Below, piece after piece: positions 3 through 486 of a stretch of DNA of 486 bases. Each line of letters begins with the position of its first letter. Within the stretch, counting starts at the first letter, position 1. The notes under the pieces were generated by a model. The model did no database searches. It saw only the letters and a program-made list of their open reading frames with translations, and was not told the origin of the DNA. This DNA comes from a phage. The stretch lies in sequence record EF517049.1; one strand, 5' to 3'. The position numbers and the translations under genes are program-made.

Positions 3-134
3 CGTAAAGAGGCCACACAGTCACGCGCTCTGGCGATTCGCTCCAACGAACTGGCTGACAGTGCATCCACTAAAGTTACCGAGGCTGCTCGTGTGGCAAA
101 CCAAGCTCAACAGCTTTCCAAATTCTTTGAGTAA
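3..134 (+). CDS. 4.3: 3' end of a small phage protein of unknown function (T7 gp4.3-like); 5' end lies outside the window
   Basis: Frame 3 is open from the window start to TAA at 132-134 and translates to RKEATQSRALAIRSNELADSASTKVTEAARVANQAQQLSKFFE, an Ala/Gln-rich, helix-like and protein-like sequence. The same stretch in frame 1 is Trp/Pro/His/Leu-rich and looks non-coding, and frame 2 has stops at 5-7 and 56-58. The stop sits 19 nt upstream of the next start with a Shine-Dalgarno in between. From memory the peptide matches the C-terminus of T7 gp4.3. Confidence 0.75.
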   Translation, partial: RKEATQSRALAIRSNELADSASTKVTEAARVANQAQQLSKFFE

Positions 135-153: not shown

Positions 154-423
154 ATGTCTAACGTAGCTGAAACTATCCGTCTATCCGATACAGCTGATCA
201 GTGGAACCGTCGAGTCCACATCAACGTTCGCAACGGTAAGGCGACTATGGTTTACCGCTGGAAGGACTCTAAGTCCTCTAAGAATCACACTCAGCGTATG
301 ACGTTGACAGATGAGCAAGCACTGCGTCTGGTCAATGCGCTTACCAAAGCTGCCGTGACAGCAATTCATGAAACTAGTCGCGTCAATGAAGCTATGGCTA
401 TCCTCGACAAGATTGATAACTAA
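154..423 (+). CDS. 4.5: Small phage protein, 89 aa, T7 gp4.5-like (the T7 protein is reported as a host Lon protease inhibitor)
   Basis: ATG at 154 with a well-spaced AGGAG, open frame to TAA at 421-423 (270 nt including stop). Product: MSNVAETIRLSDTADQWNRRVHINVRNGKATMVYRWKDSKSSKNHTQRMTLTDEQALRLVNALTKAAVTAIHETSRVNEAMAILDKIDN. This is the first ATG in frame and the upstream part of the frame overlaps the preceding gene. Length and flanking context (gp4.3-like gene upstream, T7 promoter downstream) fit T7 gene 4.5 from memory. Confidence 0.88.
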   Translation: MSNVAETIRLSDTADQWNRRVHINVRNGKATMVYRWKDSKSSKNHTQRMTLTDEQALRLVNALTKAAVTAIHETSRVNEAMAILDKIDN

Positions 424-436
424 GAGTGATATCCTT

Positions 437-459
437 AAGGTCGCCAAAGTGGTGGCCTT
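437..459 (+). other. Imperfect intergenic RNA hairpin; candidate RNase III processing site or mRNA 3'-end structure
   Basis: AAGGTCGCC (437-445) pairs with GGTGGCCTT (451-459): 9 bp including two G-U wobbles, with a 5-nt loop AAAGT (446-450). No U-tract follows, so it is not a canonical intrinsic terminator. T7 has an RNase III site (R4.7) in this intergenic region by my recollection. Confidence 0.35.
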
Positions 460-467
460 CATGAATA

Positions 468-486
468 CCATTCGACTCACTATAGG
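468..486 (+). promoter_or_regulatory. T7 RNA polymerase promoter (phi4.7-like), positions -17 to +2, truncated by the window end
   Basis: CCATTCGACTCACTATAGG at 468-486 matches the T7 consensus TAATACGACTCACTATAGG at -12 to +2 and at -14 and -15. It differs at -13 (T for A), -16 (C for A) and -17 (C for T). The +1 G is at 485 and transcription runs rightward. It sits directly after the gp4.5-like gene, as phi4.7 does in T7. Confidence 0.85.

Follow-up and report, generated by a model that had tools for sequence, protein, structure and literature searches.

The last 19 bases of the analysed window (that is, the whole 486-nt stretch of phage DNA from record EF517049.1) read like a T7 RNA polymerase promoter with an aberrant upstream end, which raises the question of which promoter the site represents and what its deviation at position -16 would mean for promoter strength. 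Comparison of the site at 468-486 (CCATTCGACTCACTATAGG) with the 19-base T7 RNA polymerase consensus (TAATACGACTCACTATAGG) revealed exactly three mismatches, namely C for T at -17, C for A at -16 and T for A at -13, and full identity from -12 to +2. A perfect core joined to an upstream segment reading CCATT in place of the consensus TAATA had already been described in a sequence-only reading of this DNA, and both parts of that description were borne out. Within the upstream segment, A:T pairs occupy 3/5 and consensus bases 2/5 of the positions from -17 to -13. No other site on either strand of the window matched the consensus with three or fewer mismatches, nor did any site in 200 dinucleotide-preserving shuffles (0/200). 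In a position matrix derived from the remaining 16 annotated T7 promoters, the site scored 23.0 bits, as compared to 9.4 bits for the best non-promoter site in the 39.9-kb T7 genome.

Alignment placed the window at T7 positions 13431-13916 (98.6% identity over 486 bases, gapless and collinear), in line with the suggested location around 13.9 kb. Matches to the window were found in 149 T7-group phage records, none of them with an identity above 98.6%. Both V01146 and NC_001604 place the start site of an annotated 'T7 promoter phi4.7' in the spacer from gene 4.5 to gene 4.7, at 13915; as this coordinate equals window position 485, position 468 corresponds to -17 and position 486 to +2. The genomic position likewise is that of phi4.7, in the spacer ~60 bp beyond the gene 4.5 stop (423) and ahead of gene 4.7, which falls beyond the window, and the promoter is also annotated in phages Y and 13a, in the former at the equivalent of 468-490. 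The full 23-bp element extends to +6 (~position 490) and the window stops at +2, placing +3 to +6 outside. Taken together, 468-486 very probably represents the upstream 19 bp (-17 to +2) of the T7 class II promoter phi4.7, the identity that had been proposed from sequence, in a T7 derivative differing at 7/486 bases. A G-initiated transcript context, whose absence the sequence-only reading had named as an argument against a promoter, is present: the window has GG at +1 and +2, the first bases of GGAGAT in the T7 reference. Phi4.7 as well as R4.7, an RNA-processing hairpin overlapping it, are already annotated in public T7-group records and named in the T7 literature, and nothing here is new in kind; all that is new is one private base change, predicted to weaken the promoter. 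Coordinates are compiled in Table 1.

Table 1. Features mapped in the 486-nt window, and its seven differences from T7.
Feature	Position	Strand	Basis or consequence
Gene 4.3 3' end, last 43 codons and TAA stop (132-134)	3-134	+	T7 CDS 13352-13564
Gene 4.5, 89 aa and stop; Gp4.5, inhibitor of toxin/antitoxin system	154-423	+	T7 CDS 13584-13853
99-aa open frame, antisense to gene 4.5, reaching into the promoter; probably spurious	181-480	-	ORF list
R4.7 RNase III processing hairpin, in read-through RNA	424-473	+	Phage Y annotation, predicted fold, covariation
R4.7 lower stem	424-432 / 465-473		
R4.7 internal loop	433-436 and 460-464		
R4.7 upper stem	437-446 / 450-459		
R4.7 apical loop	447-449		
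phi4.7, class II T7 RNA polymerase promoter, -17 to +2 (very probable)	468-486	+	V01146 and NC_001604 annotation, consensus match
Specificity-loop segment, -12 to -5	473-480		CGACTCAC, perfect, including G at -11, A at -10 and CTC at -9 to -7
TATA melting segment, -4 to -1	481-484		
GG start, +1 and +2	485-486		
phi4.7 transcription start (+1, G)	485	+	Coordinate 13915, T7 reference annotation
C to T	89		Synonymous, gene 4.3
C to T	198		Synonymous, gene 4.5
G to A	373		A74T in gp4.5
G to A	376		G75S in gp4.5
G to A	429		Intergenic; breaks 429-468 G-C pair of R4.7 lower stem (468 is promoter -17)
C to T	436		Intergenic; 5' side of R4.7 internal loop
T to C	469		Promoter -16; partner of G428 in R4.7 lower stem, G.U to G-C

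The remainder of the window is accounted for by the two genes upstream. The translated part of gene 4.3 was identical to that of T7 and matched Pfam DUF5471 (E = 2.8e-27; 3-131), and gene 4.5 matched Pfam PF17574 (TA_inhibitor) over its full length (E = 1.1e-60; 154-420). The two missense changes in Gp4.5, A74T and G75S, affect neighbouring residues; the A at 373 also occurs in phage 13a and the A at 376 in no sampled relative. Since the T7 reference has no annotated feature on the minus strand, we take the frame at 181-480 to be spurious. A scan of the window found neither a sigma-70-like promoter nor an intrinsic terminator.

As for the mode of action, it is established for T7 that the specificity loop of the RNA polymerase reads -12 to -5 in the major groove, a segment that is perfect in the window, and that the AT-rich recognition loop reads -17 to -13 in the minor groove. 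The TATA segment melts, and transcription would start at G485; by the reference annotation, the phi4.7 transcript would run through gene 4.7, the DNA polymerase gene (gene 5) and everything further downstream as far as the terminator Tphi, located after gene 10. From -12 to +2, the window site is identical to the T7 class III promoters phi6.5, phi9, phi10, phi13, phi17 and phiOR (TAATACGACTCACTATAGGGAGA), so that specificity-loop contacts, melting segment and GG start should be as in class III. It differs from them by its three mismatches between -17 and -13, and class III transcripts start with GGGAGA as opposed to the initially transcribed sequence of phi4.7 in the T7 reference. The copy of phi4.7 in the window is predicted to be much weaker than these class III consensus promoters.

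Native phi4.7 (CTATTCGACTCACTATAGGAGAT) carries CTATT upstream of the core, and the window sequence departs from it by a single T-to-C change at -16 (469). The pattern ascribed to phi4.7 in the sequence-only reading thus held with respect to the deviating positions, which are the same in the native promoter, but not to the upstream sequence itself, which natively is not CCATT. Position between gene 4.5 and gene 4.7, register, the bases from -15 to +2 and the off-consensus positions -17, -16 and -13 are all shared with the T7 promoter; the C at -16 sets the window apart, introducing a second G:C pair into the AT-rich segment. That class II promoters deviate from the consensus, as had been stated, is well exemplified by phi4.7, which with 7/23 mismatches departs further than any of the other 16 T7 promoters and alone lacks an A at -16. 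Among 19 aligned relatives, all phages whose phi4.7 core is intact have T at -16; a C there is confined to Vi06 and CHRF_10025, two phages with a decayed core and no gene 4.7. Exact pattern matching in viral contigs yielded CTATT joined to an intact core in 11 contigs, from T7-like genomes, and CCATT joined to an intact core in none.

Published activity data allow a prediction of what the C at -16 would do. Positions -12 to -5 contact the specificity loop and -17 to -13 the AT-rich recognition loop (10.1101/619395), and in the latter segment AT-rich composition counts more than exact sequence (10.1101/619395; PMC5937735). Komura et al. 2018 measured in-vitro activity as RNA reads per DNA read, and the variants considered from their S2 data retain the -12 to +2 core (PMC5937735). 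Among these variants, the consensus TAATA had activities of 142-188 (mean 169), compared to 192 for TAATT (-13 A to T), 149 for CAATA (-17 T to C) and 115, or ~68% of consensus, for TTATA (-16 A to T). Activity fell to 17.3 and 9.1 (5-10% of consensus) in TCATA (-16 A to C), to 26 and 22 in TGATA (-16 A to G), and to 10 in CGATA, which combines C at -17 with G at -16; overall, a G:C pair at -16 left 5-15% activity in this portion of the published data (PMC5937735). Judged by the S2 variants considered, the deviations of native phi4.7 are individually mild, and a G:C pair at -16 is predicted to be costly.

As the exact triples CTATT (CTATTCGACTCACTATAGG) and CCATT (the window site), and the relevant doubles, were not among the Komura S2 variants examined, promoter strength is given as a multiplicative estimate. 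Multiplying the single effects from these variants, on the assumption of their independence and with 1-2 barcodes per variant, yielded 0.67 for CTATT and 0.05-0.10 for CCATT relative to consensus, corresponding to a 6.6- to 12.6-fold drop; the single-substitution values derive from a consensus background with another initially transcribed region and other barcodes and were transferred to the CTATT/GGAGAT context. On this basis, we infer that the window copy is probably roughly 7-13 times weaker than native phi4.7.

The upstream end of the promoter overlaps a second element, R4.7, which folds into a lower stem, an internal loop and an upper stem, the layout of T7 RNase III sites, at which E. 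coli RNase III would cut within the internal loop. The Yersinia phage Y record annotates a 'single-stranded RNA cleavage site; R4.7' at the equivalent of 424-472, and R4.7 has been named as a T7 RNase cleavage site (PMC6938266). Predicted folding energies amounted to -23.1 kcal/mol for T7 (z = -4.7) and -18.7 kcal/mol for the window (z = -3.3). Across 16 distinct sequences, 93.4% of the cells at paired positions held standard pairs, as compared to 36-59% when partners were slid by 1-3 columns; three pairs changed on both sides, and the covariation score lay above all 500 shuffles, at modest sequence divergence. Neither the window nor the T7 locus hit an Rfam family even at a permissive threshold, indicating that R4.7 is not represented in Rfam. 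The hairpin in the window lies where R4.7 is annotated in phage Y and is conserved with covariation; it differs from R4.7 of T7 in the lower stem, by an A.C mismatch (429-468) and by G-C in place of G.U (428-469).

Promoter positions -17 to -12 form the 3' arm of the lower stem. In modelled read-through RNA, these bases were paired with P = 1.00 in phi4.7, compared to 0.04-0.69 in the other 16 T7 promoters, and the stem would lose pairing if -16 or -13 carried the consensus A, opposite G428 and A425, respectively. As phi4.7 transcripts start 3' of the hairpin, the only RNA on which R4.7 could act is read-through from promoters further upstream. The modelled overlap is a plausible reason for phi4.7 being the least consensus-like T7 promoter; it does not force non-consensus bases, because the non-coding 5' arm could co-vary with a consensus promoter. 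The locus illustrates overlapping constraints: of all T7 promoters, the one furthest from consensus alone has its upstream recognition bases wholly enclosed in an RNA-processing stem.

Natural variation in the hairpin was observed as well. In the Salmonella phages CHRF_10025 and Vi06, the DNA polymerase gene directly follows and gene 4.7 is absent, and the R4.7 hairpin is nonetheless kept, with G-C at the 428-469 pair and, in the upper stem of Vi06, an A-U pair replaced in compensatory fashion by G-C; judging from these sequences, retention of the hairpin does not seem to depend on the promoter. PSP2-22 has insertions in the hairpin apex and in the 3' internal loop.

Where the -16 C may have come from is suggested by the company it keeps. 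All seven differences from T7 are transitions, six of them GC-to-AT, with no indels and both frames left open; the change at 469 is the only AT-to-GC one. Natural relatives lack, or all but lack, five of the seven variants (the T at 436, for instance, occurs in no sampled relative). As to the haplotype, a 27-mer across the promoter had 0 matches in viral contigs, and a 22-mer spanning 429 and 436 had 0 matches in metagenome contigs and 0 in genome contigs. A similar bias is seen in the T7 isolates K115 (AY264776) and P82 (AY264778), which in the same region carry substitutions at ~1% density, 16/16 of them GC-to-AT. The isolates K, K115, P and P82 (AY264775-AY264778) are, we presume, the nitrosoguanidine-mutagenised T7 lines of Bull et al. 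2003. That study (J Mol Evol 57:241) is cited in the reference list of PMC8923235. With these mutagenised lines the window shares a wild-type T7 backbone and ~1% substitutions, almost all GC-to-AT; it differs in having one AT-to-GC change, and its seven changes all differ from those in K, K115 and P82. Inferred from seven mutations, the differences have the look of a laboratory T7 line treated with a chemical mutagen that favours GC-to-AT changes, and the window most likely derives from a further T7 line that was mutagenised or had accumulated mutations. Should a mutagenised line be its source, the locus would offer a small example of regulatory elements absorbing mutational load.

Gene 4.7, the first gene after phi4.7, is annotated merely as 'similar to gene 4.7' in K115 (AY264776, locus 647-786) and K (AY264775, locus 2084-2491), and lacks an annotated CDS in P82 (AY264778), which has a 1-base deletion at window-equivalent 505. 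The gene appears dispensable in the mutagenised lines K, K115 and P82.

Other accounts of the site and of its changes merit consideration. We give almost no credence to a chance resemblance, to a T3-, SP6- or K11-type promoter or to the T7 promoter of a cloning vector, and found no points in favour of any of these: chance is at odds with the shuffled sequences (0/200) and with the 23.0 vs 9.4 bits of the matrix scores, the flanking DNA consists of T7 genes 4.3 and 4.5 rather than vector, and C at -12, G at -11 and A at -10 occupy the T7 specificity positions, where the T3 consensus has ACC. The negative scan for sigma-70-like promoters in the window points the same way. That the site is phi4.7 but its T-to-C change at -16 is functionally neutral, leaving strength as in the native promoter, seems rather unlikely to us. 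Tolerance of the segment would favour neutrality, -17 to -13 being the promoter's most permissive stretch (73-88% retention among active variants, vs >98% at -9 to -7) and C at -17 and T at -13 nearly neutral in the S2 variants considered, and so would the origin of the published values, from single barcodes in another sequence context (PMC5937735). Against it stand two independent -16 A-to-C barcodes in the same data (17.3 and 9.1 vs 169 for the consensus), the low values for -16 A to G (26 and 22) and for CGATA (10), to be set beside 115 for A to T (PMC5937735), the T kept at -16 wherever a sampled natural relative has an intact core, and the lack of any viral contig combining CCATT with an intact core.

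Two further proposals concern the origin of the changes. Sequencing or assembly errors, or deliberate alteration of an otherwise plain wild-type phi4.7, could underlie all seven differences including the C at -16, and would fit a haplotype found in no phage record and in none of the viral, metagenome or genome contigs scanned, as well as the rarity of five of the seven variants among natural relatives. We nevertheless consider this very unlikely, given that all changes are transitions and 6/7 GC-to-AT, the spectrum typical of alkylating mutagenesis and seen in sequenced mutagenised T7 lines; random error or uniform scrambling would not yield such a spectrum, and neither indels nor frame disruptions occurred. 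Alternatively, selection may have favoured T469C because it partly mended an R4.7 stem damaged by an earlier G429A, even though promoter strength suffered. All three intergenic changes (429, 436 and 469) indeed fall inside the hairpin, a concentration of 3/7 mutations in 50 nt with a binomial P = 0.028, a value that ignores weaker intergenic constraint. G429A alone is predicted to shift the folding energy from -23.1 to -16.9 kcal/mol (a loss of 6.2), of which U469C, by turning the neighbouring 428.469 G.U into G-C, would return ~1.8-2.3 kcal/mol (1.8 in the compensation estimate); C436U has no predicted effect on hairpin stability. An energy value obtained by forcing the A.C mismatch into the canonical structure carries no meaning and was disregarded. 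Selection would also suit the status of 469 as the lone AT-to-GC change of seven, as opposed to 16/16 GC-to-AT in K115 and P82, and the co-variation of the 429-468 pair in PSP2-22, which has the same A at 429 together with T at 468, a true compensatory pair. We still regard such selection as quite unlikely: the energy recovered is small, C468T, the change that would truly restore the pair and is seen in PSP2-22, is absent, surviving mutations are expected to be denser in intergenic than in coding DNA, and the argument reads three mutations post hoc. In addition, selection on the stem may be weak because T7 is reported to grow on hosts without RNase III (PMC6938266). If selection had nonetheless acted, positions -17 to -12 would display a visible trade-off between two overlapping codes, i.e. 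DNA promoter recognition and the RNA stem of R4.7.

Returning to the reading favoured here, of a phi4.7 promoter probably weakened by the C at -16, such weakening should be tolerable to the phage because read-through from upstream promoters also reaches genes 4.7 and 5. With the private -16 C, this class II promoter of a viable phage is predicted to be weaker by several-fold, which fits redundant class II transcription in T7.

Inspection of phi4.7 orthologs revealed further variation. The core is altered by a C-to-A change at -12 in CICC 80001 and Bas102 and by a G-to-T change at -11 in HZ2R8. In phage 13a, the upstream segment reads GTAGT and the lower stem is poorly paired. PSP2-22 (flagged UNVERIFIED_ORG) contains an extra C within the promoter TATA segment (ACTATCAGG), which should disrupt the spacing to +1 and may reflect a sequencing error or an inactivated promoter. 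In the T7 reference (13915-13929), the phi4.7 transcript begins with GGAGAUAUUACCAUG, leaving a leader of just 12 nt, and its first four bases resemble the Shine-Dalgarno sequence of gene 4.7.
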